From NCBI RefSeq assembly GCF_025273655.1, contig NZ_CP045921.1:840001-872000 (forward strand): a stretch of DNA of 32,000 bases. The letters run 5' to 3'. Source of the DNA: Candidatus Saccharimonadota bacterium (GTDB taxonomy: Bacteria; Patescibacteriota; Saccharimonadia; Saccharimonadales; Saccharimonadaceae). The notes under the pieces were generated by a model, which had not been told where the DNA came from, ran no database searches, and was given only the letters and a program-made list of their open reading frames with translations. Position 1 is the first letter of the stretch, and the number at the start of each line of letters is the position of its first letter. The translations under genes and the position numbers were made by a program. Shown one piece after another: positions 1-26,046 of this stretch.

Positions 1-1494
1 GGACCAATCTGCGGCTTCGGATCTGGTGACTCTTACTGTTGGGGACTGAATCAGCCCGGTACTGCAAGTCCCCTGCATGTCAGGCCAACCATGCTTAATA
101 CCAATGAATCAATTACAGATGGGGGCACCGGTGGTGGCGCAGCTGGTCTCTTTGGCATAGGTGGCACCCCCGGCAACAGTTGCTATGTCGCAAATGCAAC
201 CGTTTACTGTATCGGCAATAACGAATATGGTCAGCTAGGAAACGGCACTACGGGCGGATCATCTGGTAGCTCATTTGTGAAAGCCAATACCATAGGTCTC
301 ACCGACGGCAAAGCCGCCACCGACATCTCGTCTGGCACTGACTACAGCTGCGCAATAATCGATGGTCAGCCTTACTGTTGGGGCAACGGTAGTAGCGGCA
401 AGCTTGGTAACGGCGACAGTCTCAATCGCACCCACCCATATGGTGTCAATGGCCTGCCCGACTCGACGTCGTCGACACAGGTTACCGCCGGCAACGCTCA
501 TTCATGCTCAATCACAGGCGGTCACGCCTACTGCTGGGGTAGCAATGCGTCTGGGCAAGTCGGAAGTGGTGCTAATAATCCACAACTATCTGCTCGTCTC
601 GTGACGGGTAGTGGTTTTGAAAGTATGGCAGTCACCGACATCTCAGCCGGGCGAGATCACACTTGTGCTGTCGCAAATAGCAAGGCCTATTGCTGGGGAC
701 TTAACACTTATGGCCAACTTGGCAATAACACGACTACTGCAACAGGTACGCCTACAGCTGTCCGAGCCAACAGTGGCGATGCACTATATGGCAAACAGGT
801 GACCAAAATCGTTGCCGGTGATCGATTCACCTGCGCGATCGCCGACGGCCAGCCTTACTGCTGGGGGGAGCGCGCTAGCGGTAAAATTGGCAATGGTGGT
901 AGCACTAGTGGCAATACACTACTCCCCGCGGCTGTATCAAATATGACAGGCGCTTCCACCGATCTTGAAGCTGGACCAGATTATGCGTGCGCTATCGAAA
1001 GCGGCATACCGAAGTGTTGGGGCGAAAATCAGTACTACCAACTCGGTATTAATAGCACCGTTGATCAGACGACTCCCACTACCAACACCACATTACAAGG
1101 TAGCTCTAGTAGTCCAAAAAACACCACTTCCATGGCTCTTGGAACCTCTAGCGCCTGTGCAATTACCAATGGTACCACCTACTGCTGGGGCAGTCGTGCC
1201 AACGGGCGCATCGGTAACGGAGGCACCACTACTGGTAACACTGCCACTCCTACGGCAATCACGGAAGTCAACTCTACGACAGACCTAGGACCCCAAAATA
1301 CTCCGTATAAACTGTCGGCTGGCAGCTTCGGCTCTTGTGCGATAGCCAACGCCCGCATCTATTGCTGGGGTGACGGCAGTCAAGGCCAGATGGGTACCGA
1401 CACCACACCTTCAGCCACACTCGCACCAGGTATCACTGCCGACTATACACGAGATGTCACTATTATCTCTTGGGCAAATACTATCTTCTACTAA
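1..1494 (+). CDS. RCC1-repeat beta-propeller protein, 5' end outside window; paralogue of the C-terminal half of 2750..5641
   Basis: Frame 1 is open from nt 1 (GPICGFGSGDSYCWG...) to the stop at 1492-1494, so ATG 91 is probably internal. At least 9 repeats carry the ~50-aa signature [YK]C[WI]G-x-N-x-x-GQLG. Colinear with the last ~470 aa of the downstream RCC1 protein, including the shared C-terminal tail ADYxR...Y-stop. Confidence 0.85.
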   Translation, partial: GPICGFGSGDSYCWGLNQPGTASPLHVRPTMLNTNESITDGGTGGGAAGLFGIGGTPGNSCYVANATVYCIGNNEYGQLGNGTTGGSSGSSFVKANTIGLTDGKAATDISSGTDYSCAIIDGQPYCWGNGSSGKLGNGDSLNRTHPYGVNGLPDSTSSTQVTAGNAHSCSITGGHAYCWGSNASGQVGSGANNPQLSARLVTGSGFESMAVTDISAGRDHTCAVANSKAYCWGLNTYGQLGNNTTTATGTPTAVRANSGDALYGKQVTKIVAGDRFTCAIADGQPYCWGERASGKIGNGGSTSGNTLLPAAVSNMTGASTDLEAGPDYACAIESGIPKCWGENQYYQLGINSTVDQTTPTTNTTLQGSSSSPKNTTSMALGTSSACAITNGTTYCWGSRANGRIGNGGTTTGNTATPTAITEVNSTTDLGPQNTPYKLSAGSFGSCAIANARIYCWGDGSQGQMGTDTTPSATLAPGITADYTRDVTIISWANTIFY

Positions 1495-1540
1495 CGACGC
1501 GTATTGGCCGCATTAACTCGTATGGTCTCGTGGACGAATC

Positions 1541-1549
1541 TGCTACAAT
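1541..1549 (+). promoter_or_regulatory. extended -10 promoter element TGCTACAAT upstream of the minor-pilin genes
   Basis: Exact 9-mer TGCTACAAT, 13 nt before ATG 1563. The same 9-mer recurs at 12674, 16899 and 29807, always upstream of a + strand gene or tRNA. Confidence 0.45.
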
Positions 1550-1562
1550 AACCATAAGGATT

Positions 1563-2036
1563 ATGAGGGATATGCGGAGCGATACAGGTTTTACATTGGT
1601 GGAAATGCTTGTAACAGTAGTACTGATCGGCATATTTATTGCATTTTTCGTACAGATGTTTCGCGCAGGTGCCGCACAACAAGCGTCCATCGTACGCCAA
1701 GCAAAAGCCAACAACCTCGCCTACTCCAACCTCAGCAAATTCCCACGCGCTTCCAGTATTTCACCAGCCTACGTATGTGATACCTCCACCAACACTTCTA
1801 CCAATCAAAATAATCTGACAATCAATCCGAATGCAGCTGGCACACTCATACTTAGTGATGCAAGCGCCAATAAAGAACCGACAGACAGTGCACTGCCTAA
1901 TGCCACGCAGGAAGTCAGAGCATACTCCCCACAGGGATGCGGATCAAATGCCCTGGTAAAACTTATTTCAACAGTAACCTACGGTTTTACTGGCCAACAA
2001 ACGGACGCAAGCTATGCAACATATGTACAAAACTAA
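1563..2036 (+). CDS. minor (pseudo)pilin with prepilin-type N-terminal cleavage/methylation domain
   Basis: MRDMRSDTG/FTLVEMLVTVVLIGIFIAFF matches the prepilin peptidase motif G|F-x-x-x-E plus hydrophobic helix. The track start at 1470 would leave 40 aa before the motif and was rejected. ATG 1563 and ATG 1572 are both possible. Confidence 0.75.
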   Translation: MRDMRSDTGFTLVEMLVTVVLIGIFIAFFVQMFRAGAAQQASIVRQAKANNLAYSNLSKFPRASSISPAYVCDTSTNTSTNQNNLTINPNAAGTLILSDASANKEPTDSALPNATQEVRAYSPQGCGSNALVKLISTVTYGFTGQQTDASYATYVQN

Positions 2037-2796
2037 CAGGGGTTTTACGATACCAGAGCTACTCGTGGCCATGACCATAGCTGCAATCCTTCTTGTCGGC
2101 TTAGTAAGCCTCGTCATCAATCTCGTCAATACAAATGCAGCTACTATCGAACTTTCTAAGCAGGTCAACGAAGTGCAGTCGGGAATAGGCTCATTCCGTA
2201 CAGATATCGGACTTAGCCAGCGTTTCCTCATGACGACTACGATCACAGACACAACGCCAGCTGGCAATAGCTGGGACTTTCGCGGCGGCGGTAACACAAA
2301 TCGCGTCTTAATACTAAATGTCCAAGCCGCTTCGAGCAATCCGCTCGATACAAGCAGACAGCCTACCTACCTACAGGCGGGTGGATGTCCAATTGGAACA
2401 AGCCCCGCATACAACAATATTGTATATTTTGTATCTTCCGGTACACTATACCGCCGCATGATTGTACAGCCACCATCCGCCAATCTCTACTGCTCGGGAC
2501 AATCCAATGCCCAGACCCGTACTTGTAGCAATCCGGGGAGTGGCGGCTCACCAAGTAACTGTCAAGAAAAAGATGTTGCTATTATCCAAAATGTTACCAA
2601 TTTTAACGTCGAATATTATAATCAAGCGGGCGATACCACTCCGAATCAAACATTGTATAATACCGGTACAGCCCAGTCCTTACTGGACGGTATTGCCACT
2701 CTGAGAATTTCCCTTAGTACGCAAAAAAATATAGATGGAGTCAACACGAATGAATATGCCACGAGTATTCGAGTCACACGACCAATTGCCTTCTAG
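2014..2796 (+). CDS. minor (pseudo)pilin with prepilin-type N-terminal cleavage/methylation domain (PilW-size)
   Basis: MQHMYKTNRG/FTIPELLVAMTIAAILLVGLV has a canonical G|FTxxE motif. Overlaps the previous gene by 23 nt (14 nt if ATG 2023 is used), consistent with an operon. Confidence 0.75.
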   Translation: MQHMYKTNRGFTIPELLVAMTIAAILLVGLVSLVINLVNTNAATIELSKQVNEVQSGIGSFRTDIGLSQRFLMTTTITDTTPAGNSWDFRGGGNTNRVLILNVQAASSNPLDTSRQPTYLQAGGCPIGTSPAYNNIVYFVSSGTLYRRMIVQPPSANLYCSGQSNAQTRTCSNPGSGGSPSNCQEKDVAIIQNVTNFNVEYYNQAGDTTPNQTLYNTGTAQSLLDGIATLRISLSTQKNIDGVNTNEYATSIRVTRPIAF

Positions 2797-5641
2797 ACGA
2801 GCAGGGTTTGTGCTACCCGCGCTAATCATGTTGTCGCTCGTATTGATGTCAGCGGGGCTTGTAACACTACAGTATGTCTCATCCACCACGAGTTCAATCC
2901 AATCAAACCACTATATAGCCGTTGCCAAAAGTGCCGCCAACGCGGGTGCAAACTTGGCAATCAGTTGTATTCGTAGTGGCGATACTAGCTGGACCCAAAA
3001 TAGCGTGCCGCTTACCCCTAAAACAGGTTGTAATGGTGTCGATGTCGCCGCTAGGAGTAGTACTGTCAGCACAAGCGCGGATGGCAGCACCGTACAGACG
3101 ACTTTCTCTGTCGCGCCCCTTTCGGAGACTCCACAAGGAACAGTCGTCACCGCTACCGGTACCGTAGAATTTCGCTACGCAGGCAGTAGCACAGCCTCAA
3201 AGTCCTACAGTGCCACCAGCAAAGTGGTGATTCCCACGACATCTACTAACGATGTACGACCCATCGCACAGGGTGTAGCCGTTACTAAAGTAAAAGCCGG
3301 TGGTAATTTCAGTTGTGCAATTGCCAATCAGCAACTCTATTGCTGGGGCATCAACGATCAAGGGCAAAATGGCACCGCCGTATCTTCAAACGTCACAACG
3401 CCGACACTCTCAAATGCTGGAGCAATTACCGGCAAACGCATACAAGATCTAGACTTAGGATTCTATAATGGCTGCGCCATCGCCGATGGACGAGCATACT
3501 GCTGGGGACGTAATGCCATCGGACAACTTGGCACGGGGGGTACAGGTGGAGTGTCGCTACCTGTCGCGGTCGGCGGATCCCTCGCAAGTCAAAACGTACA
3601 AAAAATCACAGTAGGAACGAGTGCCGATGCGTCCAACCCTTCGCAATACGCATGTGCCATCGCACAAACAAAAGCATACTGCTGGGGCGCGAACAATTAT
3701 GCACAATTAGGCCAAGCCTCCTACGACTGCATCCCGATTATCGGCTGCTTTCAGCTCAGTACCAAGCCACTCTTTACCTCAGGCGTGTACGACGCGACAA
3801 AAGTAAGCCCGACAGAAGTGTTCGGCTACTCAAATCGCCAGTTTGAAAGCCAAAGCCAAATCTACAACCGCAACCCCTCAGACCTTGAAGCTGGCGCCTA
3901 CGGGGTATGCGGAGTGTTCAACGGTCGGGGATTTTGTTGGGGAAATCGTTTCGTCAGCTTACCGCTCAACGATGCCGGCGGCACAAACGACTCTAGCGGC
4001 TGGAAAAACGGTAGCTTATCTGGAAAGTTTGCCAGTTCACCTATTACCGGTGAATCAACTGCCTGTATGGTCGCGGAAGGACGCGCCCACTGCTGGGGCG
4101 CAAGACCGGGAGATGGCACCAACCCACTACTGCCAGACGGCACACCGCAGCTCGTACCAAACACTGCCGGCAATCCGCTATACGGCGTCAGTGTTTTAGG
4201 GGGCGACACTACCGATGATCAGGGACCAATCTGCCTCGTCGGTGCAGGTAACTCCTATTGTTGGGGAGCACCGACTGATACCGGCCTGTCGGTTGGCCTT
4301 GATTCAGATGCGTCCGCACAAGGCGCCGTCACCTCTACCGCGGGTGGTCGAGACTACGGCTGCTTCGTCGCCAATGGCTCCGCATACTGCATTGGAGACA
4401 ACTCCTCTTATGCCCTAGGGGATGGTACGACGACGACGCGAACAAGCCCCGTCAAAACTCTCAATATTGGCCTCACCTCTGGAGAAGCCGCAACCGACAT
4501 TAGCACGGGTGACAATCATTCGTGTGCCGTTATCAATGGCTACATATATTGTTGGGGGCGCAATTCAAGCGGCCAGGTGGGCGATAGTACAAATGTCAAT
4601 CGCTCACAACCATACGGCGTACAGGGTATTACCGAGCCTACGCGTGCAACTGCCGTAGCGGCTGGTGGCTCACATTCATGCGGTGTTATCAATGGTAGTG
4701 CATACTGCTGGGGCAGCAACTCAGCCGGACAGCTTGGCAACGGCTCGAATCTCGATACAAACTCGGCAGCCCTCGTAAGTGGCGGCACGATGGCCGGAAA
4801 AGACGTCACCGCTATCTCTGCTGGCAGCTCACATACCTGCGCAATTGCCAACGGAGAAGCCTACTGCTGGGGAGATAACTCAGCCGGACAGCTTGGCAAC
4901 AATACCACTACACAAAGTAACGTACCGGTTAAAGTACAAGGTATGAGCGGTCTTGCGGTCACATCGATCACCGCTGGCGGTAATTTCAGCTGTGCAATTG
5001 CCGATCAGCGTGCGTATTGCTGGGGCAGTAACACTTATGGCCAGATTGGACGAGCCGCCTCCCCGCAAGTAGGTGGCCAACAACTTACTGCGACAGCTGT
5101 CGACGCGCTCAGCACCTCAGCTTTTACTGAAATCTCAGCAGGCAAAGACTTTACATGTGCTATAGTGAACGGCTACGCACACTGTTGGGGCAATAACACC
5201 GAAGGCCAGCTCGGGCGCAGCTCAACCGCATCAAATCAATGGCAAGCCCTTCGTGTGGCCAGTCCTGTGGATGGTAAGGGCACCGCACATATCACTACTG
5301 GTACTGCCCATGCTTGTAGTATCACAAATGGTCTCGCATATTGCTGGGGACGTAATACCAGTGGCCAAATAGGCGACAGTTCCACCACCCAGCGCAACAC
5401 TGCAGTCACGGTCACTGCATCCGCCTCCTATTTAGGCAGCAACTACCCTTTTAAGATTTCTGCCGGTGGCAACAACACCTGCTCGATTGCCAACGGAAAA
5501 ATCATCTGCTGGGGTGCAGGCTCCGAAGGGCAGCTTGGCACAGGCACCACACCTTCTCTGTCAAATGCGCCAGTTGGCTGGTCGGCAGACTACATCAGAA
5601 GTAGACGAGTGCTCGATTTGTCCCGGATGGTTGCATATTAG
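2750..5641 (+). CDS. PilX-type pilin N-terminal domain fused to 14 RCC1 repeats (two predicted 7-bladed beta-propellers)
   Basis: N-terminus SRRAG/FVLPALIMLSLVLMSAGLVTL...SNHYIAVAKSAANAGANLA resembles the PilX_N family (hydrophobic helix, no Glu5, A-x-AG motif). From about aa 180 there are 14 repeats with [YFI]C[WI]G-x-N-x-x-GQ[LVI]G. GGAG lies 9 nt before ATG 2750; the track start at 2735 is also possible. Overlaps the upstream pilin gene. Confidence 0.85.
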   Translation: MNMPRVFESHDQLPSRRAGFVLPALIMLSLVLMSAGLVTLQYVSSTTSSIQSNHYIAVAKSAANAGANLAISCIRSGDTSWTQNSVPLTPKTGCNGVDVAARSSTVSTSADGSTVQTTFSVAPLSETPQGTVVTATGTVEFRYAGSSTASKSYSATSKVVIPTTSTNDVRPIAQGVAVTKVKAGGNFSCAIANQQLYCWGINDQGQNGTAVSSNVTTPTLSNAGAITGKRIQDLDLGFYNGCAIADGRAYCWGRNAIGQLGTGGTGGVSLPVAVGGSLASQNVQKITVGTSADASNPSQYACAIAQTKAYCWGANNYAQLGQASYDCIPIIGCFQLSTKPLFTSGVYDATKVSPTEVFGYSNRQFESQSQIYNRNPSDLEAGAYGVCGVFNGRGFCWGNRFVSLPLNDAGGTNDSSGWKNGSLSGKFASSPITGESTACMVAEGRAHCWGARPGDGTNPLLPDGTPQLVPNTAGNPLYGVSVLGGDTTDDQGPICLVGAGNSYCWGAPTDTGLSVGLDSDASAQGAVTSTAGGRDYGCFVANGSAYCIGDNSSYALGDGTTTTRTSPVKTLNIGLTSGEAATDISTGDNHSCAVINGYIYCWGRNSSGQVGDSTNVNRSQPYGVQGITEPTRATAVAAGGSHSCGVINGSAYCWGSNSAGQLGNGSNLDTNSAALVSGGTMAGKDVTAISAGSSHTCAIANGEAYCWGDNSAGQLGNNTTTQSNVPVKVQGMSGLAVTSITAGGNFSCAIADQRAYCWGSNTYGQIGRAASPQVGGQQLTATAVDALSTSAFTEISAGKDFTCAIVNGYAHCWGNNTEGQLGRSSTASNQWQALRVASPVDGKGTAHITTGTAHACSITNGLAYCWGRNTSGQIGDSSTTQRNTAVTVTASASYLGSNYPFKISAGGNNTCSIANGKIICWGAGSEGQLGTGTTPSLSNAPVGWSADYIRSRRVLDLSRMVAY

Positions 5642-5850: not shown

Positions 5851-6873
5851 ATGAATGTACACACCAACATACCTCTCAAAAACTATCTATCCATGAAGAT
5901 AGGCGGCCAGACGCGCTTCATGGCAGACGTCACGACAGTCGAAGAGCTTCAGCAACTCGTGAGCAACACCAAAGCAAAGGGTATTCCGTTTTTTATCCTA
6001 GGTAGCGGTAGCAACGTCATTGCCCGAGACGAAGAGTATCCTGGACTTGTCATTCGCGTACGCATTCCCGGTTTCGAAGTGATAGACGAAAATGCCACTA
6101 CGACCACTATCAAGCTCGGCGCAGGTGAGCTCTGGGACGATGTCGTCGCAAAATCTGTCGACATGAATCTAATCGGCATCGAAGCCATGTCCGATATTCC
6201 CAGCTACTGCGGCGCAGCACCCGTGCAAAACATCGGCGCCTACGGTCAGGAAATCGCTGATACACTCCTGTCGCTCGAAGCTTACGACACCGAAGCTGAA
6301 AAAATGGTGACGCTGAGTAACGATGAGTGTAAGTTTACTTATCGCGACAGCATCTTCCGCACCGAAGCTCGCGGTCGCTATATCATTACTTCAATCACGC
6401 TTCAGCTGTTCAAGGCAGCCCCAGAGCCACCGTTTTACAAAGGAGTTCAGAACTATTTTGACGAGCACAGTGTCACCATCTACACCCCACAGGCTATACG
6501 AGAAGCCGTCATAGCGATTCGCCACGAGAAGCTACCGAATCCTGTTGAACGACCAAATGCTGGCTCTTTCTTCAAAAACGCTATTATCGAACAATGGCAA
6601 CTCGACGAGCTGCTGCGCGACTATCCAGATGCGCCTCACTACGAGATGGACGAGAGCCGCCACAAAGTTCCGACAGGCTGGCTTATAGAGCAATGCGGCT
6701 TCAAAGGCCAGTCGCTCCATGGCTTCCTCGTCAACCCGGCCAACGCACTAGTGCTCATCAACGAATCTGCCACGGGATATCTAGATCTCTCACTCGCCAG
6801 AGGTGAAATTACCCAAGCTGTCCAAGACCGCTTCCGCATCAATATCGAACAAGAACCACTGGAGATAGCCTAG
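5851..6873 (+). CDS. murB: UDP-N-acetylenolpyruvoylglucosamine reductase
   Basis: 340 aa. Contains the FAD-binding GSGSNV motif, PVQNIGAYGQE, FxYRDSIF, NAGSFFKN and GWLIEQCGFKG, colinear with long-form (E. coli-type) MurB from memory. Confidence 0.9.
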   Translation: MNVHTNIPLKNYLSMKIGGQTRFMADVTTVEELQQLVSNTKAKGIPFFILGSGSNVIARDEEYPGLVIRVRIPGFEVIDENATTTTIKLGAGELWDDVVAKSVDMNLIGIEAMSDIPSYCGAAPVQNIGAYGQEIADTLLSLEAYDTEAEKMVTLSNDECKFTYRDSIFRTEARGRYIITSITLQLFKAAPEPPFYKGVQNYFDEHSVTIYTPQAIREAVIAIRHEKLPNPVERPNAGSFFKNAIIEQWQLDELLRDYPDAPHYEMDESRHKVPTGWLIEQCGFKGQSLHGFLVNPANALVLINESATGYLDLSLARGEITQAVQDRFRINIEQEPLEIA

Positions 6874-6953: not shown

Positions 6954-7406
6954 ATGAGTCTTCAAACATTAAAAGATCAAAAGGGTTTCACTATCGTTGA
7001 GCTCCTGATCGTGATCGTAGTCATCGGTATTTTGGCCGCTATCTCGATTGTGGCATACAACGGTGTAACAAAGCGGGCAAATGCATCTGCGGCAAAAGGT
7101 AATGCAGAATCTGTACAGAAGGTTGCAGAAGCCTACAACACAGATGAAAATAGTGCTGGTTACCCAACACTTGCTCAGATTAACGCAGGCACAACTACTG
7201 TCAAGATTCCGTCAGGAGTCACAGTTAGCGCAGCCGCTCCAGATGCAAGCAACGGCAAAACAGCCATTGGCTACAAGGAACTTGGTACCACAGGTGGCTG
7301 TATTGCATACTGGGACTTCAATGCTTCGACTCCAGCCGTTGCCTACGTATATGCCGGCGCAGCACGTACAGGCGGCGTAACTAGCGGTAACGTTACTTGC
7401 GCGTAG
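6954..7406 (+). CDS. type IV major pilin (PilA-like), copy 1
   Basis: MSLQTLKDQKG/FTIVELLIVIVVIGILAAISIVAY has the prepilin motif. 150 aa, with a C-terminal Cys pair (GGCIAYWDF...NVTCA) typical of the T4a pilin D-region. AGGGGG lies upstream. Confidence 0.85.
   Translation: MSLQTLKDQKGFTIVELLIVIVVIGILAAISIVAYNGVTKRANASAAKGNAESVQKVAEAYNTDENSAGYPTLAQINAGTTTVKIPSGVTVSAAAPDASNGKTAIGYKELGTTGGCIAYWDFNASTPAVAYVYAGAARTGGVTSGNVTCA
6984..7106 (+). repeat. 123-nt block 100% identical to 7577..7699 (5' ends of the two pilin genes)
   Basis: Direct comparison: ggtttcactatcgttgagctcctg...ggcaaaaggtaatgca is identical in both copies. Flanking sequence diverges, with many synonymous changes. Confidence 0.95.
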
Positions 7407-7461: not shown

Positions 7462-7564
7462 TGTCTCAATTAAAATAGAGGTCGATTCATCAAAAATGGC
7501 ATTCTTATTAAATAAATTAAATATCGTGAACTCAGCAGCTGAAAATCTACAAAGACAGCCACAC

Positions 7565-8020
7565 ATGACATCACGAGGTTTCACTATCGTTGAGCTCCTG
7601 ATCGTGATCGTAGTCATCGGTATTTTGGCCGCTATCTCGATTGTGGCATACAACGGTGTAACAAAGCGGGCAAATGCATCTGCGGCAAAAGGTAATGCAA
7701 CCTCAGTTCAAAAAGTAGCAGAAGCTTACAATGCCGATGAAAATGGAGGTGCGTATCCAACCCTTGCGCAGCTCACTACGGGTACTACAACAGTTAAGCT
7801 TCCCTCTGGTGTAACTGCTAGCGCAACAGCACCTACTGCGGCAAATGGTAAGACTACAATTGGCTATGCGACACTTGGCACTTCGCCTAACTTTACTGGT
7901 GCATGTATTGCCTACTGGGATTTCAATGCAAGCACTCCTGGAGTTGCGTATGTGTACGCTGGTGCGGCGCGAACGGGTGCACCTACAGGTACGACCACCG
8001 GCAGCGTCACCTGTGCATAG
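7565..8020 (+). CDS. type IV major pilin (PilA-like), copy 2
   Basis: MTSRG/FTIVELLIVIVVIGILAAISIVAY. 151 aa from ATG 7565, about 80% identical to copy 1 by eye, with the same C-terminal Cys pair (GACIAYWDF...SVTCA). The track start at 7496 gives a 28-aa leader and is less likely but not excluded. Confidence 0.8.
   Translation: MTSRGFTIVELLIVIVVIGILAAISIVAYNGVTKRANASAAKGNATSVQKVAEAYNADENGGAYPTLAQLTTGTTTVKLPSGVTASATAPTAANGKTTIGYATLGTSPNFTGACIAYWDFNASTPGVAYVYAGAARTGAPTGTTTGSVTCA
7577..7699 (+). repeat. second copy of the 123-nt identical pilin 5' block
   Basis: Identical to 6984..7106. Confidence 0.95.
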
Positions 8021-8458: not shown

Positions 8459-9370
8459 ATGATACCGAAGGTTTTAATCACCCTACTGACAATACTCTGC
8501 ATGCAACTAGTCTACGGAGAGGGCACTGCGCAAGCAACCTCTGCTTATGATTCGGCACTCCTTACTGTCGACAAGCTGGAGATTCAAACGTATGGCACCT
8601 CTGTCAGTAGTTGTGCCAGGAAGGATATTTCCCAATCCTACGATGAGTACATCTTGAACTCGTCAAAGTGGGAATCGGGGATAGACTCTTCGATGACGGC
8701 TTCATTCAGTAATGCTCTCGACCATGGTCAGATAGGAGTAAGCCAGTTTGTTTACGGATCATCAGGTGTTACAGAGTACTCGGTGATAATCTATTGGACA
8801 GAAGATTTTTCTTTACAGCTAGACTGGAGAGATGCCTATAATGTCTTTGCCGTAAGCTCCACTTCTAGCACTATGCATTTCGCTCAAATCTACTACGACG
8901 CGAGCTGCAATGACAAGCTCATGTTCTACACTACGTCGTATAATAGCGGCGTAAACGTCTCGAATGGAGTAACTGTGTCGTACTCGGCACCATCAAGCGG
9001 CATGGCCATAGGTCAATACGCATTCGATGGCGAAGCCAATTACCCCGTGGGCTATGCCGGAGAAGTAGTATCAACAATACAGGCTCCTCCTGTAGAAGCA
9101 GTCTATAGCGGGACAGTTGATTGCGGAGGAGAGGAGCCAGTCTTGATGTCCATCTATCAGCCGGGCAACAACGGTGCGGCGACTCTGTCGGCACAGTCTC
9201 TCGGTCGTGCAAATTGGGTGTATAGTCTCAGAGATGCTTCTTATACGGTAACTGTTGATTGTGGGGGCGGGAAGATAGCCGGAGTGTTTAGCGCAGTAAG
9301 GCCCGAGGATGGAACTGACTGGGTATGTGACATCTACGGAACCGAACCGTATTACTGCGTGCTTAGCTAA
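8459..9370 (+). CDS. secreted hypothetical protein
   Basis: Signal-peptide-like N-terminus MIPKVLITLLTILCMQLVYGEGTAQA. AGGAAAG lies 4 nt upstream of the ATG. Two TVDCGG motifs sit about 46 aa apart near the C-terminus. No family recognised. Confidence 0.6.
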   Translation: MIPKVLITLLTILCMQLVYGEGTAQATSAYDSALLTVDKLEIQTYGTSVSSCARKDISQSYDEYILNSSKWESGIDSSMTASFSNALDHGQIGVSQFVYGSSGVTEYSVIIYWTEDFSLQLDWRDAYNVFAVSSTSSTMHFAQIYYDASCNDKLMFYTTSYNSGVNVSNGVTVSYSAPSSGMAIGQYAFDGEANYPVGYAGEVVSTIQAPPVEAVYSGTVDCGGEEPVLMSIYQPGNNGAATLSAQSLGRANWVYSLRDASYTVTVDCGGGKIAGVFSAVRPEDGTDWVCDIYGTEPYYCVLS

Positions 9371-9438: not shown

Positions 9439-10736
9439 CATTTATTTGTAAATCGCCATACCACGGAAGGCAGCGGGTACTTATCGATAAAGAATGCAAC
9501 CTCGCTACGCAATATAGCAAGCTCTTCGCTATTCGCACGAGAGTCTATTGCCCGTTTCATCCATTCCGCGATCTGCGCCATATGCTCTTCCTTTAGCCCG
9601 CGCGTTGTGAGCGCTGGCGTACCAAGGCGTATGCCACTCGGACGAAACGGTGGATTCGGATCATCTGGCACTGCATTTTTGTTCAGCGTCAGTCCTATTG
9701 CGTCTAGCGCCTCTTCGGCCACTTTGCCATCAATACCGAAGCTCTTCTGCACATCTGCGAGGATCAAGTGATTGCTTGTGCCCCCTGTCACGAGCACAAA
9801 TCCGCGCTTCTGCAACTCATCAGCCAACATGCTGGCGTTTTTGAGTATTTGCGCAGCATAGTCTCTGAACTCTGGCTGGAGTGCCTCGCCAAACGCCACG
9901 GCCTTTGCAGCGATCACATGCATATGTGGTCCACCTTGCATACCAGGGAAGATGGCACGGTCGATAAGTGTCGGAATATTTTCTATTGTTTTCTCTGGTT
10001 TTTTGAGTGGATTGCTCACTGTACCTTTGGTCAGTATCAAGCCGCCACGTGGTCCGCGCAGTGTCTTGTGAGTCGTAGTAGTGATCACATGGAAACCGTA
10101 GTCAAACGGATTTGCCGCCACGCCACCAGCAATTAGCCCGGCAATATGTGCCATATCCGCCATTAGTAGGGCCCCCACTTCGTTGCCTATCGCTGCGAAC
10201 TTAGCATAGTCAAGCTCGCGTGGGTAGCCAGAAAAACCAGCCAACACAATCTTCGGCTTATGCTCAAGTGCCAGAGCCCGCAATTCATCATAATCGATCT
10301 CGCCTGTATCGATATCCTTCATCTTGTAGCGCACGAAGTTATACAGCTGTGCACTCCGGGTCACAGGTGCGCCGTGCGTCAGGTGTCCACCGTGACTCAG
10401 ATCCATCGCAAGTACCGTATCGCCTGGCTCAAGCCATGCAGTATAGACGGCTTCGTTTGCCGGTGCCCCGCTATGGGGCTGCACATTGGCGTGATCCGCA
10501 CCAAAAAGCTGTTTGGCGCGGTCAATCGCTAATTGCTCTATTTTATCTGTCCACTCCTGGCCACCATAGTAGCGTCGGCCCGGATACCCTTCGGAATATT
10601 TGTTTGTCAGCTCACTACCCAGTGCTCGCAGTACGTTCTGCGAGATATAGTTCTCACTCGGAATCAGCTCTAAGCCTTCTTGTTGGCGCTTTTTTTCTGC
10701 CTCAATATATTCAAATACGATGTCATCTGTCATCAT
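9438..10736 (-). CDS. glyA: serine hydroxymethyltransferase
   Basis: 432 aa. LELIPSENY, YSEGYPGRRYYGG and the TTTTHKTLRGPRGG PLP-lysine motif are present. AAGGA lies 8 nt upstream of the ATG. Confidence 0.95.
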   Translation of the reverse strand: MMTDDIVFEYIEAEKKRQQEGLELIPSENYISQNVLRALGSELTNKYSEGYPGRRYYGGQEWTDKIEQLAIDRAKQLFGADHANVQPHSGAPANEAVYTAWLEPGDTVLAMDLSHGGHLTHGAPVTRSAQLYNFVRYKMKDIDTGEIDYDELRALALEHKPKIVLAGFSGYPRELDYAKFAAIGNEVGALLMADMAHIAGLIAGGVAANPFDYGFHVITTTTHKTLRGPRGGLILTKGTVSNPLKKPEKTIENIPTLIDRAIFPGMQGGPHMHVIAAKAVAFGEALQPEFRDYAAQILKNASMLADELQKRGFVLVTGGTSNHLILADVQKSFGIDGKVAEEALDAIGLTLNKNAVPDDPNPPFRPSGIRLGTPALTTRGLKEEHMAQIAEWMKRAIDSRANSEELAILRSEVAFFIDKYPLPSVVWRFTNK

Positions 10737-10781
10737 CGTGAATCCTTATCTGTTAACTATATTTAGTATACACTATTGCGT

Positions 10782-10801
10782 TTATATCATTTATGATATA
10801 A
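10782..10801. promoter_or_regulatory. candidate operator: 9-bp perfect inverted repeat TTATATCAT-TT-ATGATATAA overlapping the -10 of the HTH-murA gene
   Basis: Read directly from the sequence. The right arm overlaps the extended -10 TGATATAAT (10794..10802), which lies 7 nt before ATG 10810. Confidence 0.4.
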
Positions 10802-10809
10802 TTATCTTT

Positions 10810-12339
10810 ATGAGTGTCGAAGAATACCGTGCAAAAATAGGTAACCTAATCCAAGAAACCCGTCTCGCGCGTGGTTTTACGCAGGCACAACTCGCCGAAG
10901 CGCTTGGCACTAGCCAGAGCGCCATCAACCGCATAGAGAAAGGCGGCCAAAACATCAGCGTCGAAATGATTGCGCGTATCAGCGACGTACTGTCGAGCAA
11001 CATCATGACAATCAACCATAGTGGCAAAATTAATTTTCGCGTTCACGGTGGACACAAGCTCAGCGGCTCCATCGTTACCAAAACTAGCAAGAATGCGGCC
11101 GTTGCCCTCCTCTGCGCCAGTCTGCTCAACCAAGGCAAGACTACACTGCGACGTGTTGCTCGCATCGAAGAAGTCAATCGCATCATAGAGGTTCTTCAGA
11201 GTATTGGTGTCAAGACACGCTGGGTAGGCGAAGACAACGATCTGGAAATCGTCCCGCCGAAGACTCTTAATCTCGCACATATCGACATAGAAGCCGCCAA
11301 ACGCACACGTTCTATCATCATGTTCCTTGGCCCGCTTCTTCACCAATACAGTGAGTTTGAGCTGCCATTTGCCGGTGGCTGCAATCTCGGCACCCGTACC
11401 GTCGAACCGCATATGACAGGTCTCGAACCTTTTGGCCTCTCTGTCACAGCGACAAACAGTGCCTACGTTGCTACATCGTCACCACATGCAGTTAATCGTA
11501 CTATTCTGCTCACCGAGCGTGGTGATACTGTTACCGAAAACGTCCTGATGGCAGCTGCACGATACGACGGTACTGTCACGATACGCAACGCCAGCCCTAA
11601 CTATATGGTGCAAGACCTTTGCTATTTCCTGCAAAAGCTTGGCGTACAGATAGAAGGCATCGGCACCACTACCCTGCGCGTTACCGGTGTAAGCAAAATC
11701 GATACAGACGTAGAGTACTTCCCCAGTGAAGATCCGATCGAAGCCATGAGCTTCATCGCAGCTGCTGCTGTGACTGATTCTGAGTTGACAGTAGAACGCG
11801 CACCGATCGAATTCCTAGAGATTGAGCTCGCCGTGCTCGCCGGCATGGGTCTGCAATATGAACTCAGCGAAGAATATACTGCCCGCAACGGCTTCACTCG
11901 TCTTGTTGACATCCGACTCAAGCATTCACAGCTTGTCGCGCCCAAAGACAAATTGCATAGCATGCCGTTTCCTGGCGTCAACATGGACAACCTACCGTTT
12001 CTCGGTCTCATCGCTACCATGGCAAAAGGTCGTACACTTGTGCACGACTGGAGCTATGAAAATAGGGCGATCTACTTTACCGAACTAAGCAAACTCAACG
12101 CGCAGATCGAACTTGTAGATCCGCACCGGGTCTACATCACCGGTCCCACTAAGTGGAAACATGCAGATGTTGTCGCACCGCCAGCTCTGCGCCCCTCGGT
12201 CGTAATTTTGCTTGCTATGCTCGCAGCCCCTGGTGTCTCAACACTTCGCGATGTCTACTCGATCAACCGTGGCTACGAAGAACTCGCTGGACGTCTCAAT
12301 AGCCTGGGTGCGCAGATCGATACTGTGCGAGAGATTTAG
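10810..12339 (+). CDS. murA: XRE-family helix-turn-helix domain fused to UDP-N-acetylglucosamine 1-carboxyvinyltransferase (MurA-like)
   Basis: The N-terminal ~65 aa (RLARGFTQAQLAEALGTSQSAINRIEKGGQNISVEMIARI) form an HTH_XRE domain. The remainder (FRVHGGHKLSGSIVTKTSKNAAVALLCASLL...FAGGCNLGTRTVEPH...) is colinear with MurA and includes the active-site Cys loop. The track start at 10720 was rejected because its hydrophobic, AT-rich extension runs across the promoter. Confidence 0.85.
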   Translation: MSVEEYRAKIGNLIQETRLARGFTQAQLAEALGTSQSAINRIEKGGQNISVEMIARISDVLSSNIMTINHSGKINFRVHGGHKLSGSIVTKTSKNAAVALLCASLLNQGKTTLRRVARIEEVNRIIEVLQSIGVKTRWVGEDNDLEIVPPKTLNLAHIDIEAAKRTRSIIMFLGPLLHQYSEFELPFAGGCNLGTRTVEPHMTGLEPFGLSVTATNSAYVATSSPHAVNRTILLTERGDTVTENVLMAAARYDGTVTIRNASPNYMVQDLCYFLQKLGVQIEGIGTTTLRVTGVSKIDTDVEYFPSEDPIEAMSFIAAAAVTDSELTVERAPIEFLEIELAVLAGMGLQYELSEEYTARNGFTRLVDIRLKHSQLVAPKDKLHSMPFPGVNMDNLPFLGLIATMAKGRTLVHDWSYENRAIYFTELSKLNAQIELVDPHRVYITGPTKWKHADVVAPPALRPSVVILLAMLAAPGVSTLRDVYSINRGYEELAGRLNSLGAQIDTVREI

Positions 12340-12673: not shown

Positions 12674-12682
12674 TGCTACAAT
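12674..12682 (+). promoter_or_regulatory. extended -10 TGCTACAAT (with TTGATT at 12656..12661) for the cupin operon
   Basis: Exact recurrent 9-mer. The -35-like TTGATT lies 15 nt upstream. GGAAGGAG precedes the GTG start at 12721. Confidence 0.5.
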
Positions 12683-18525: not shown

Positions 18526-21231
18526 CTAGCTCGAAGCTTTAAAGATGATGTTGTTAGTGGTGTAGAAGTCATCATGGCTATTCGGAATCGTGTCCTCATC
18601 CCAGCATTGGCGCGAACCAGACATACTCGCGAGCACCGCGCATGCCATCGTATAGCCACGGAAATATTTCATCATTTCGCTACTGTCATCCATGCATTTT
18701 TTGCCCGTATACCACTCTTGGTCAGCCGTACTGCCCCAGCCCAGCGCATAGTAACTTTCTGGCTTTTCTTCATCATCCGGTTTCTCGCGTAAGCCACTAC
18801 GGTTATCCGAAGTACGGCGCCCCTTCTCGTCGACTGGGTCTTCAGCATATTTGGGATCCTGTTCATCCACCGCCATGCCAATACCACCCCAGGGATCTTG
18901 GCGATTAACACAATATTGCATAAATTTGGCATATTCGGTGTACTTGTTCGGCTTGCCTGTCGCAGGGTCAACATACGCTGCTGCTGCACCGTCCCGTGCT
19001 TGCTTTTTCATACGCTCGCCGCGCTCTGGGTCTGCACTTGTATCACGCGCATTTACTTCGGAAAGTGACTTCTGGGCATTGTCTGGATGAGGTTTCGTCA
19101 TGTAGTCGAGGATTTCAGATATATCGAGGCTTAGCTCCTGGGGTGTCATAGAGTAACGTATATTACACGCAAAGTCTGGATTGATCTCTATATCGAGGTC
19201 GCCCTGAATACCGCATACTGTCGCAGGCTGCATACGCGTCACCTGAAAATGAGATGGCTGTGTATAGAGCGCACTGACGCCAGTCTGCAGGACACCATTA
19301 GCAGCAAGTGGCAACGACGAAAGTAGGGTCGACACACCTCCTTGCCAAGAACCAGATGGCAATGCGGTACCAGCCGGTGCAAATTTCGCTACCACACTCC
19401 CCACGAAGCTATAGGGATTTGTTGCGTCCCAAGGAGTGCTGCGCGCCGCAATTCGCTCCTCATTCTCCAGTTTCTCTTGTAATAGCTGCGCCTGGGTCAT
19501 ATATACAGTCATGCTGGCTATATTTGCCGGGCGCATGCCAAGTGACTGCGCCCTATCGCCTAGTAATGTACCCGTACCTGCAAAAATAATATTTTGCGCC
19601 TGTATACCAGTGGTGGACGCACTAAATCGCTGCGATTCAGCCTGTGCCGCAATTCGAATACGCTCGGGGAGTGTTGCCGTGGCTTCTGTTCGAGTAGCCG
19701 CTTTCACGAGCTCCACTACAGATTTCACAGATGCCGGGCACATGATACGCTCTATTAAGTCTTTGGCAGCCCCAATTACACCACCAGCTGCCACCCCAAT
19801 ATAGCTCGCAAGTGGCATCGACGCAGGTGACCAACACAAGCCACTTTGCTCGGTTGCCATCTGCGCACCGCTCATTCCCTCAGAACAGAGCCCGTGGGCA
19901 GTTCTATCACGAGCTCCGTTTTGGACAATATTGCTTGTCAGCGCTAGTTTCAGGTACTCTGTTCCTGGTACCGAAGGTGCGCCCGGCTTAAGGATCCCTA
20001 GCAGTAGCAATGGCGTCAATTCGGTCAATATCGTAGCCCGATCCTTGATCGACTCGCCAAGTGCAGGCACACGATAGGTGTCGGCGTCCATAGCATTTTT
20101 GCCATTAGAGTTTGCCTTTGTCAGTTTGTTCGCGAGCGACTCTACGGCAATTTCTCCGTCGATGGGGGAACCCGCCTTGAGGTCATCGGCTACAGCAAGA
20201 TAATTCATAGCATACCGAGCCGTCGACACGACTTTGGCTCGCGCCACAGCATTTTCTGCCAAGTTGCCGTAAGTAGCATATGAACAGGCCAGAGAAAGAT
20301 GAGTATTCGCCTTCGCTTCTAGATTGGTATAGATTTTTGTCCTCCACGAATTGGACATTTCACTCAAGCTCGCAAGACTATAGATTCCCCGTCCATTTTC
20401 ATCGATTGCGTCCTGTGTATCTTGCGCATTTGTAGCTGCATTTTCCACATCGTCACTGAAGTCATTGTATCGGGGATCGCCGTGCGCAACGCGTTCGTCA
20501 AACGCTGCATCAAACTTCTCTACCGTATCTCCATGGAGCGTATTGTCTTGCTCAATACCAAACTTACTGAGCAGACGATCAAAGAACTGCCTGTCCTGAT
20601 AAATACCCGTGCGCGAACTATAGACTTTGTTCATCAGATCATCGGCACTATGATTATTCTTGCGTACTGCGTTAAGTGTCGTCGCATCAACCGCCGCACC
20701 CCCGCCATTTGGAAAAATCAGCGAGGATACATTGTAGCGCTTATTTGTCGCCTGGCTTGAAGTCAGGATAAATCCATAGCGTTCAAATCGTTCCTTGAGC
20801 ATAGGGCTCATAGTTTGGAATTTACATTTGATTGTCTTTTCACCGCAGCCTGCGCCGAGCTGTCCACCCAATACTTTGTTGGAATACGTATAGTACGCAT
20901 AGAGGCCGTCATTGAGATCGTTGGTCAATTGCTCTTTGTCATTGATCAGTAATACCATGGGTGAAATAAACAGTATACCAGTCACTGCCAAAATAAACAC
21001 AGCACAGACAAAGAGGACTGAACTCACATGCCCAGTATGAACTTTTTCGGTATAGTGAGTTTCGGTATCGACGTGCGTCTTCTTCTCGACCTCTTCCTTA
21101 TGAGTAACAGTCGTAGTACCACCGGTACCACTTGACTCAAGTCGTTTAAGCATAGACTGTGACTCACTCAAATCTCCCGTATCGTCCCGGTTGGCAGACG
21201 AGTTGTTGAGCTGCTGGTTGTTTTCCGGCAT
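18526..21231 (-). CDS. large N-terminally anchored extracytoplasmic protein (4th gene of the Clp-like membrane operon)
   Basis: 901 aa from ATG 21231 (TTG 21234 is also possible). About 70 charged N-terminal residues are followed by one TM segment (VSSVLFVCAVFILAVTGILFISPMVLL) and an ~800-aa domain with several Cys. The start overlaps the upstream stop (TGATG). No family recognised. Confidence 0.7.
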   Translation of the reverse strand: MPENNQQLNNSSANRDDTGDLSESQSMLKRLESSGTGGTTTVTHKEEVEKKTHVDTETHYTEKVHTGHVSSVLFVCAVFILAVTGILFISPMVLLINDKEQLTNDLNDGLYAYYTYSNKVLGGQLGAGCGEKTIKCKFQTMSPMLKERFERYGFILTSSQATNKRYNVSSLIFPNGGGAAVDATTLNAVRKNNHSADDLMNKVYSSRTGIYQDRQFFDRLLSKFGIEQDNTLHGDTVEKFDAAFDERVAHGDPRYNDFSDDVENAATNAQDTQDAIDENGRGIYSLASLSEMSNSWRTKIYTNLEAKANTHLSLACSYATYGNLAENAVARAKVVSTARYAMNYLAVADDLKAGSPIDGEIAVESLANKLTKANSNGKNAMDADTYRVPALGESIKDRATILTELTPLLLLGILKPGAPSVPGTEYLKLALTSNIVQNGARDRTAHGLCSEGMSGAQMATEQSGLCWSPASMPLASYIGVAAGGVIGAAKDLIERIMCPASVKSVVELVKAATRTEATATLPERIRIAAQAESQRFSASTTGIQAQNIIFAGTGTLLGDRAQSLGMRPANIASMTVYMTQAQLLQEKLENEERIAARSTPWDATNPYSFVGSVVAKFAPAGTALPSGSWQGGVSTLLSSLPLAANGVLQTGVSALYTQPSHFQVTRMQPATVCGIQGDLDIEINPDFACNIRYSMTPQELSLDISEILDYMTKPHPDNAQKSLSEVNARDTSADPERGERMKKQARDGAAAAYVDPATGKPNKYTEYAKFMQYCVNRQDPWGGIGMAVDEQDPKYAEDPVDEKGRRTSDNRSGLREKPDDEEKPESYYALGWGSTADQEWYTGKKCMDDSSEMMKYFRGYTMACAVLASMSGSRQCWDEDTIPNSHDDFYTTNNIIFKASS

Positions 21232-25684: not shown

Positions 25685-26046
25685 CCTGCCGTCATAAGTA
25701 CGAACCCGGTGATAGGTAGCACTGGTACAATTGCCCATACCGCTAGTACGCAGACGCCCAAAAGTGCTTGGAGCGTAATCGTAACAAGGCCCATCACCAG
25801 CACCGTGCTGCGAATCATTGCACCAATAACGCGTGAGATCATGCGTCCCGCCCACGCCTGTACTTTCACTGACAGTGGACCATCTACCGAGCCAGCCCCA
25901 TCTTGGCGAAACAACGCAAACATTGTCCGTAGGAGCAGACCTATGGAGAAATAATCCATTGTACTTTCGAGTCGGGTCATCGTCATACGGGCGCGCTGTT
26001 GCCAGCCTATCGTATACCACCACCTCAGTAGGCCCACTATAAACAT
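25663..26046 (-). CDS. small integral membrane protein, 127 aa (1st gene of operon)
   Basis: Hydrophobic segments VIGAMIRSTVLVMGLVTITLQALLGVCVLAVWAIVPVLPITGFVLM. The stop overlaps the Clp-like start. TATAAT lies 6 nt upstream of the ATG. Confidence 0.6.
   Translation of the reverse strand: MFIVGLLRWWYTIGWQQRARMTMTRLESTMDYFSIGLLLRTMFALFRQDGAGSVDGPLSVKVQAWAGRMISRVIGAMIRSTVLVMGLVTITLQALLGVCVLAVWAIVPVLPITGFVLMTAGWIPWQF

Follow-up and report, generated by a model that had tools for sequence, protein, structure and literature searches.

The window analyzed here, a stretch of 32,000 nucleotides from the genome of Candidatus Mycosynbacter amalyticus, contains minor-pilin genes arranged in two tandem modules, each of which ends in a gene for a large PilX-like protein that joins a pilin-like N-terminus to RCC1-type propellers. 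Protein similarity and gene order identify this locus as the orthologue of type IV pilus locus three (pilV2-pilW2-pilX2-pilA2) of the Saccharibacterium TM7x, in which, compared with TM7x, the propeller is doubled and the module duplicated. The PilX protein encoded entirely within the window has 968 residues and is 100% identical to QHN43110.1 (GII36_04620, annotated as "hypothetical protein") and WP_260762958.1 ("RCC1 domain-containing protein") of M. amalyticus. M. amalyticus is a cultured wastewater Saccharibacterium that lives as an epibiotic parasite of Gordonia amarae. The original prediction for this DNA, made from its letters and open reading frames, had considered host-cell recognition plausible if the organism were an epibiont.

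Bases 1–5641 contain four genes on the forward strand. Coordinates are positions in the window; module 2 lies inside it, whereas module 1 reaches upstream and was read on contig L002. The contigs extending the window were obtained by exact-protein look-up of the 260-aa pilin of module 2. The open reading frame (ORF) that enters at base 1 (1–1494) provides the C-terminal 497 codons of the module-1 PilX2-like protein, comprising blades 6–14 and the tail (Pfam WD40_RLD 3.5e-106). The full gene encodes 1028 aa, starts approximately 1.6 kb upstream of the window, and occupies positions 6395–9481 of L002. Module 2 begins with a pilV-like minor pilin of 154 aa (1572–2036; N_methyl 1.1e-6, TIGR02532, weak PilV/GspH matches), listed as a small ORF from 1470, for which gene callers place the true start at ATG 1572 or alternatively 1563. 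It is followed by a pilW-like minor pilin of 260 aa (2014–2796; N_methyl 6e-7, TIGR02532, weak GspJ/HpsC matches) and by the PilX2-like modular minor pilin with two RCC1 propellers (2750–5641). The PilX ORF spans 2735–5641 and gives 968 aa from ATG 2735, or 963 aa from ATG 2750, which is the start selected by gene callers. The two small pilins have the prepilin motifs SDTG/FTLVEML (pilV-like) and TNRG/FTIPELL (pilW-like). The three genes overlap, as had been predicted: start 2014 precedes stop 2036, and start 2750 precedes stop 2796.

Pilin-like anchor and RCC1 propellers of PilX

The N-terminus of module-2 PilX reads SRRAG/FVLPALIMLSLVLMSAGLVTLQYV...AKSAANAGANLA and starts with a basic leader that is short. 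A class-III-like signal junction (G24/F25) and a long N-terminal alpha-helix are formed by residues 24–80 (2804–2974, forward strand). Glycine at position −1 and phenylalanine at +1 are present, but position +5 is alanine instead of the glutamate of canonical prepilin signals (G-F-[TS]-L-x-E). The helix is followed by a globular pilin-like head (residues 81–180; 2975–3274, forward strand), which consists of a loop with cysteines C78 and C99, invariant in three alignments (A2, A3, and A5), and a four-stranded beta-sheet. In the AlphaFold2 model of the N-terminal module, calculated from a 23-sequence alignment, the helix comprises residues 26–80 and the strands residues 120–126, 130–132, 135–147, and 154–166, with a mean predicted local distance difference test score (pLDDT) of 83.8. 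The full-length model places the helix at residues 29–80, and its length varies between 52 and 55 residues across models. The "lollipop" of a helix and four strands, found in both models, is the layout of type IV pilins.

The sequence of Bacillus subtilis ComGG and the N-terminus of Pseudomonas aeruginosa PilX served as comparators; both were validated by Pfam (ComGG 1.3e-28; PilX_N 2.4e-16). The hhalign match to ComGG has a probability of 88% (E 3e-6) over 29 columns that cover the signal and transmembrane segment only, and aligns GFIYPAVL... with GFxLPxV.... The ComGG models of Pfam (PF14173) and NCBIfam do not match the window protein, and a profile search of sequences from the Protein Data Bank with the N-terminal module returned only a spurious claudin match (E 1.7). 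ComGG/GspK-type subunits resemble the window protein in having glycine at −1, no Glu5, and the last position in a minor-pilin operon. The N-terminal module is best described, from its motif, topology, and operon position and without support from a curated hidden Markov model (HMM), as a Glu5-less cap-pilin anchor similar to ComGG, GspK, and PilX.

Module-2 PilX contains exactly 14 C-x8-C-[WI]-G repeats between residues 194 and 916, spaced 43–85 aa apart. Pfam assigns the region to WD40_RLD (1.9e-131; best stretch 527–860) and RCC1 (3.4e-73). Propeller 1 is formed by blades 1–7 (residues 181–515; 3275–4279, forward strand) and has long insertions in blades 3–4. Propeller 2 is formed by blades 8–14 (residues 531–940; 4325–5554, forward strand), and is followed by a conserved C-terminal tail strand ending in tyrosine. 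The full-length AlphaFold2 model (pLDDT 86.5, predicted template-modeling score 0.81) shows beta-strands from residue 156 to the end of the protein, with a low-confidence linker at residues 514–527 between blades 7 and 8. Foldseek retrieves complete seven-bladed RCC1-like domains (RLDs) of UVR8, RPGR, HERC2, and RCC1, with E-values down to 7e-33, a template-modeling score of 0.89, and a root-mean-square deviation of 2.1 Å over approximately 370 columns. The lower-ranked matches are tandem double-propeller proteins aligned over approximately 830 columns. The region therefore has the families (PF25390/PF00415/PF13540) and the seven-bladed fold of RCC1-like domains, and the predicted structure supports the presence of two seven-bladed propellers.

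These results agree with the original prediction, which had counted 14 repeats and proposed two seven-bladed propellers covalently fused to a pilin-type anchor in the last gene of a minor-pilin operon. The AlphaFold2 models give a helix, a four-stranded sheet, and then the propellers within one ORF. The predicted PilX-type pilin helix is present as a hydrophobic helix with the G/F-x-L-P motif and a small beta-sheet head; no PilX_N or N_methyl match was obtained for it.

Each blade contains two invariant cysteines. Their spacing is C-x8-C both in the window protein and in its full-length homologues, and C-x8 to x12-C in the TM7x-type PilX2 (2917–4647 of contig L012, described below). All 14 pairs are invariant in 31 full-length homologues. 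Such conservation points to a single disulfide in each blade of a protein that lies outside the cytoplasm, in a bacterium whose genome is very reduced.

Duplicated modules, orthology to TM7x, and the N-terminal family

Upstream of base 1, module 1 contains a 173-aa prepilin, a 278-aa prepilin, and the 1028-aa RCC1 protein, the end of which is the first ORF of the window. The N-termini of the two PilX proteins are of the same kind, with RQQG/FILPALIVLSLLLMSMGLVALQYV...VANAGASLAYSC (RQQG/FILPALIVLSLLL around the junction) in module 1 and RRAG/FVLPALIMLSLVLMSAGLVTLQYV...AANAGANLAISC in module 2. Each of the three gene pairs is colinear from end to end, with protein identities of 61% for PilV, 39% for PilW, and 41% for PilX. 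Within PilX, the helices are 65% identical, the heads 35%, and the propellers 41% (propeller 1, where the alignment has 53 gap columns from many indels) and 49% (propeller 2). The identity of nucleotides 1–12 to 4223–4234, reported in the original prediction, was confirmed. The ORF at base 1 had been interpreted as a colinear paralogue of the second propeller. The colinear paralogy holds, but the ORF has nine blades and begins in blade 6, in propeller 1. The proposed repetition of a module of minor pilins and an RCC1 protein is borne out by the complete second pilV-pilW-pilX set. The upstream sequence, where a pilin-type N-terminus of the first RCC1 gene had been expected, encodes such an N-terminus together with the two prepilins of its own module.

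The major-pilin-like gene is also duplicated. Module 2 is followed by tRNA-Arg, murB (5851–6873), and then pilA-a and pilA-b in tandem. pilA-a (6954–7406, forward strand; 150 aa; N_methyl 1.5e-8, N-terminal matches to GspG/PilA/ComGC) is positioned as pilA2 is in the TM7x-type locus. Its duplicate pilA-b (7496–8020, forward strand; N_methyl 1e-6) probably starts at ATG 7565 (MTSRG/FTIVELL). The two proteins are identical at 120 of 157 aligned positions.

The related loci that could be located in genomes all belong to Candidatus Saccharibacteria. A search with a narrower N-terminal alignment returned only three loci from Saccharibacteria metagenome-assembled genomes (MAGs), and TM7x was not among them. 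In L007 and L009, two other loci from Saccharibacteria, the module and pilA are each present once, with pilX (RCC1) genes of 993 and 1059 aa, in the order response regulator-folD-DUF5684-pilV-pilW-pilX-murB-pilA-glyA. Since both related loci are single, the duplication of the pilV-pilW-pilX module is lineage-specific.

TM7x (Nanosynbacter lyticus) is an oral Saccharibacterium whose type IV pilus locus three contains pilA2, pilX2, pilW2, pilV2, and pilZ2 (Grossman et al., ISME J 2025, PMC12206443). According to the published description, PilX2 is a minor pilin that has an RCC1 propeller and lacks a canonical PilD signal (PMC12206443). A TM7x-type sequence, contig L012, was reached by searching metagenome contigs for the published primer PilX2_Up_F. 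In this contig, the genomic part of primer PilX2_Up_R abuts exactly the ATG of a 576-aa ORF, which is flanked by the published deletion primers. The length of the ORF and the proline at residue 159 agree with the published construct, and the protein has the N-terminal motif of the family described below and seven C...CWG blades. The gene order murB-pilZ2-pilV2-pilW2-pilX2-pilA2-glyA(−)-helix-turn-helix (HTH)/5-enolpyruvylshikimate-3-phosphate (EPSP) synthase includes the same neighbors as in the window. BLASTP aligns the window PilX with the L012 protein with an E-value of 9e-49 and an additional in-register N-terminal segment pair (window residue 18 to PilX2 residue 1); PilW has 27% identity (E 4e-17) and PilV 30% (E 7e-12). 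The window protein thus has the N-terminal homology, the lollipop module, the C-terminal RCC1 propeller (twice, not once), and the pilV2/pilW2/pilA2 and murB/glyA neighborhood of PilX2. These similarities and the common neighbors are the basis for assigning the window locus as the orthologue of TM7x locus three.

The N-terminal module is not restricted to propeller proteins. The N-terminal 173 aa gave no match in a word-indexed homologue search, and a 40-sequence profile returned only 19 short proteins. The family was revealed by an exhaustive HMMER search with residues 8–180, which retrieved at least 498 representative clusters at E≤1e-3, clustered at 50% identity. The match is always at the N-terminus of proteins of 110–1300 aa. 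Relatives have been named "Tfp pilus assembly protein PilX" by the Joint Genome Institute. Where a name is available, the family has been seen so far only in Saccharibacteria. Its pattern consists of a variable basic leader, G-[FY]-x-L-P, a hydrophobic stretch, and QYY..LA.EAA.AG...A..C...W...L.P.T.C.G. Among 150 representatives, glycine directly precedes the helix in approximately 135 and position +5 is never glutamate; the junction glycine is conserved although the length of the leader varies. A Pfam scan of 82 members detected RCC1 in 58, ricin-B lectin in five, phage tail collar with gp10_C in three, ConA-like Laminin_G_3 in two, Fib_succ_major in one, and similar modules. The C-terminal modules of the family thus include RCC1 propellers, either single or double, lectins of the ricin-B and ConA-like types, and phage tail-collar/gp10-like modules. 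Among the 150 representatives, approximately 17–20 have 12–15 blades and approximately 26 have 6–8. This variety suggests that the swapping of C-terminal modules on a conserved anchor is a general route to host specificity in Saccharibacteria.

Two proteins from other lineages, P0248 (903 aa) and P0255 (1241 aa), combine RCC1 propellers with canonical Glu5 prepilin signals (NGFTLIELVV and QGFTLSEVVV, respectively), indicating that RCC1 modules have been grafted onto canonical as well as Glu5-less pilin anchors.

The ratios of non-synonymous to synonymous substitution rates (dN/dS) between strains are 0.01–0.13 for both pilX genes, similar to murB. Diversifying selection on the propellers, which the original prediction had proposed to look for between strains, was not seen (dN/dS 0.00–0.13). 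The purifying selection argues that both paralogues are functional, and against rapid diversification at the strain level.

For pilA-b (7496–8020), the comparison of the window with strain L001 gives a dS of 0.60 (57 synonymous and three non-synonymous differences), whereas the dS of the flanking genes is 0.03–0.16. The gene seems to have been replaced through recombination by the allele of a more distant strain, with the protein nearly unchanged.

Promoter-like element and neighboring genes

The nine-nucleotide sequence TGCTACAAT, which resembles an extended −10 promoter element, lies on the forward strand at 1541–1549, upstream of the first gene of module 2, where a promoter element had been predicted. 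It occurs four times in the window (1541, 12674, 16899, and 29807, all on the forward strand) against 0.35 copies expected, and none of 100 shuffled sequences reaches four. The copies at 1541, 16899, and 29807 are at most approximately 30 nucleotides upstream of the next gene or tRNA (tRNA-Pro in the case of 29807), and the one at 12674 falls in the gap that follows tRNA-Gly. The sequence was also found upstream of the first pilin gene of module 1 (L002 5090) and upstream of pilV in the single-module locus L009 (4714). The enrichment and the position of three of the four copies just upstream of a gene or tRNA indicate that it is probably a conserved extended −10 element of this Saccharibacterium. 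A sigma-70 two-hexamer scan did not flag the element at 1541, and the number of sites was no higher than in shuffled sequences.

Directly downstream of the two pilA genes, positions 8459–9370 (forward strand) encode a protein of 303 aa that has a signal-peptide-like N-terminus and matches no Pfam or NCBIfam model. Its counterpart in strain L001 has 301 aa, and the start is shifted by approximately 80 nucleotides relative to L002. The gene at 10720–12339 (forward strand) fuses an HTH_3 domain to an EPSP-synthase/MurA-type enzyme; the fusion adjoins glyA both here and in L012 (6564–8087). Further downstream, the reverse strand of 18526–26023 contains a TrbL/VirB6-like protein (21231–23234) flanked by a 901-aa ORF without a Pfam match (18526–21234) and a ClpB-like double-AAA protein (23231–26023). 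This region may be part of a type IV secretion or conjugation-like system of Patescibacteria.

Proposed function of PilX and comparison with known systems

Deletion of pilX2 in TM7x phenocopies deletion of pilA2 and halves host binding (4.6% versus 10.6% of hosts bound), whereas deletion of pilV2 or pilW2 does not reduce it (PMC12206443). PilX2 was proposed as the adhesin of the thin pilus T4P-2, "similar to PilY1" (PMC12206443). The purified globular propeller domain of PilX2 (P159 to stop 577) binds TLR2, and was named a putative tip-associated adhesin (Nat Commun 2026, PMC13194787). The orthology to PilX2 supports the claim of the original prediction that the window protein is a candidate pilus-tip adhesin. 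We consider it likely that the M. amalyticus locus as a whole functions according to such a model, in which PilX is a cap pilin with an adhesive tip. The homology and architecture are firmly established parts of the model; that PilX acts as a tip adhesin in M. amalyticus is somewhat better than an even prospect. Cleavage by PilD, the location at the tip, the ligand, and a division of labor between the paralogues are inferred.

According to the model, PilV, PilW, and PilX would form a priming complex on the inner-membrane platform. Because PilX lacks Glu5, it is proposed to be the first, and hence the most distal, subunit. PilA would polymerize beneath PilX, leaving the propellers exposed at the tip of the fiber, where they could bind a ligand on the surface of the host cell, here G. 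amarae. The two modules would provide two alternative tips, perhaps each paired with one copy of PilA.

Several observations weigh against the model. No PilX_N, N_methyl (PF07963), or NCBIfam pilin model matches the 968-aa protein even at E≤10, which is formally the outcome that the original prediction had named as counting against itself. Foldseek retrieved no pilin with the model of the N-terminal module. The hhalign match to ComGG does not extend beyond the signal and transmembrane segment, a part in which scores are inflated by the hydrophobic composition, and the match to the N-terminus of P. aeruginosa PilX has a probability of only 24%. PilX_N is touched in only two of the 82 relatives scanned, with E-values of about 7e-4. 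The deletion of pilX2 in TM7x also lowered the number and length of filaments, so the phenotype may partly reflect assembly (PMC12206443). The thin filaments in contact with G. amarae were initially taken for type IV pili (PMC11880426). When isolated from M. amalyticus, however, these filaments proved by cryo-electron microscopy to be donor-strand-exchange Pam pili, and the isolated fibers were not reported to include any type IV filament (bioRxiv 10.64898/2026.03.03.709456). It may therefore be that type IV pili with the PilX proteins are rare, are made only under certain conditions, or are not the chief organelle of attachment.

PilX_N (PF14341) was rejected as a family assignment for the window protein, given the lack of a match, the two relatives touched, and the low hhalign probability. 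The label "PilX-type" is justified by the motif, the fold topology, the position in the operon, and the orthology, and not by an HMM.

The absence of Glu5 and of pilin matches, in both HMM and Foldseek searches, and of type IV filaments among those isolated from M. amalyticus (bioRxiv 10.64898/2026.03.03.709456) would also suit a cell-surface protein held by an uncleaved helix, with the propellers serving on the cell body for short-range adhesion or sensing, independently of pili, and the neighboring pilin genes reflecting co-regulation only. Several features make this explanation improbable: the glycine kept exactly at the junction of leader and helix despite the variable leader, the pilin layout of an approximately 55-residue helix followed by a four-stranded sheet, the translational overlap with two true prepilins conserved across Saccharibacteria, and the binding defect common to the pilX2 and pilA2 deletions of TM7x (PMC12206443). 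Alternatively, PilX could be solely a factor for priming and assembly, with PilV-PilW-PilX nucleating the pilus and the propellers having a structural role, for example as a plug or a spacer spanning the cell wall. The reduced filament counts and lengths of the pilX2 mutant (PMC12206443) are expected from such a factor. Strong purifying selection without a diversifying signal between strains also fits, and priming complexes of minor pilins are established for the GspHIJK and FimU-PilVWX systems. Nevertheless, we regard a purely structural role as unlikely, because the purified PilX2 propeller domain binds the receptor TLR2 directly (PMC13194787), host binding is reduced by deletion of pilX2 but not of pilV2 or pilW2 (PMC12206443), and the C-terminal module is replaced within the family by ricin-B lectin, ConA-like lectin, and phage tail-collar modules, all of which are binding modules.

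The best remote match of the N-terminus is ComGG, and Saccharibacteria are naturally transformable, which was used for allelic exchange (PMC12206443). A competence pseudopilus, in which a ComGG-like propeller subunit captures DNA or cell-wall material for uptake and does not recognize the host, is nonetheless very improbable. The ComGG match is confined to the signal and transmembrane segment, and neither the globular domain nor the NCBIfam ComGG model gives a match. Furthermore, the locus-three mutants of TM7x were made by transformation, are viable, and are defective in binding to host and epithelial cells (PMC12206443, PMC13194787).

Host recognition by ultrasmall epibiotic bacteria is an active question, and in TM7x the adhesin candidate most favored is PilX2. 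Two diverged versions of PilX2, each with a double propeller, are present in M. amalyticus, where they are annotated only as hypothetical or RCC1 proteins. Its attachment requires the mycolic-acid layer of the host, and to our knowledge no adhesin of M. amalyticus has been named so far. The PilX paralogues are therefore concrete adhesin candidates to test against wild-type and pks13/pptT Gordonia. More tentatively, and with considerable doubt, the N-terminal module could define a large family of Glu5-less "cap pilins" with an exchangeable C-terminal receptor-binding module, which would act as determinants of epibiont host range much like the receptor-binding proteins of phages. The two alternative tips of M. 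amalyticus, one or both recognizing the Gordonia mycolic-acid layer that resistant host mutants lack, could then complement the Pam pili.

The closest known relative of the window protein is PilX2 of TM7x. Both have a homologous helix and head with glycine at −1 and no Glu5, neither has a PilD or N_methyl prediction, and both are built of the same C-x8-C-W-G blades. The order pilV-pilW-pilX and the neighbors murB, pilA, glyA, and the HTH-EPSP synthase gene are common to the two loci. However, PilX2 has one propeller (576 aa, seven blades), whereas the PilX proteins of M. amalyticus have two (968 and 1028 aa, 14 blades), and the module and pilA are in tandem duplicate only in M. amalyticus. The FimT-like pilin gene pilZ2 is present in the TM7x-type locus and absent next to the M. 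amalyticus modules. The TM7x-type contig has murB ahead of the pilin genes (L012 110–1135), whereas M. amalyticus and two MAG loci have it between pilX and pilA. The M. amalyticus host is a mycolic-acid actinobacterium, a further difference from TM7x.

PilY1/PilC of Proteobacteria likewise places a beta-propeller at the tip of a type IV pilus, together with a priming set of minor pilins (FimU-PilVWX), and is implicated in adhesion. PilY1 itself is not a pilin: it is secreted by the Sec pathway as a separate protein and docks onto the minor pilins, and its propeller is not of the RCC1 type. In contrast, the M. amalyticus propellers are covalently joined to a pilin-like anchor. The Pfam scan of the window protein gives only RCC1-type families and not PilY1/PilC (PF05567), and its N-terminus is pilin-like and not a Sec signal. 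With ComGG of the Com pilus, GspK of the type II secretion system, and PilX of type IVa pili, the window protein has in common that it is encoded by the last and largest gene of a minor-pilin operon and has glycine at −1 and no glutamate at +5. Its globular part appears unrelated to theirs in sequence, and a binding region of approximately 780 residues is appended. The principle of grafting an adhesive module onto a pilin is known from the type IV pili of the monoderm Streptococcus sanguinis, in which PilB carries a von Willebrand factor A module and PilC a lectin module (PMC8179133). These pilins have canonical class III signals and different modules, and have no sequence relationship to M. 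amalyticus PilX. The seven-bladed RCC1 fold is common to the eukaryotic-type RLDs UVR8, RPGR, HERC2, and RCC1, from which the window protein differs in being extracytoplasmic, in the tandem pair of propellers, in the two conserved cysteines per blade, and in the fused pilin-like anchor. The concept of a pilin-anchored RCC1 propeller adhesin is already published for TM7x (2025). The doubled propeller and the tandem duplication of the M. amalyticus module and pilA extend beyond the literature consulted, as do the large size of the N-terminal family, its modularity, and its ComGG-like Glu5-less signal.

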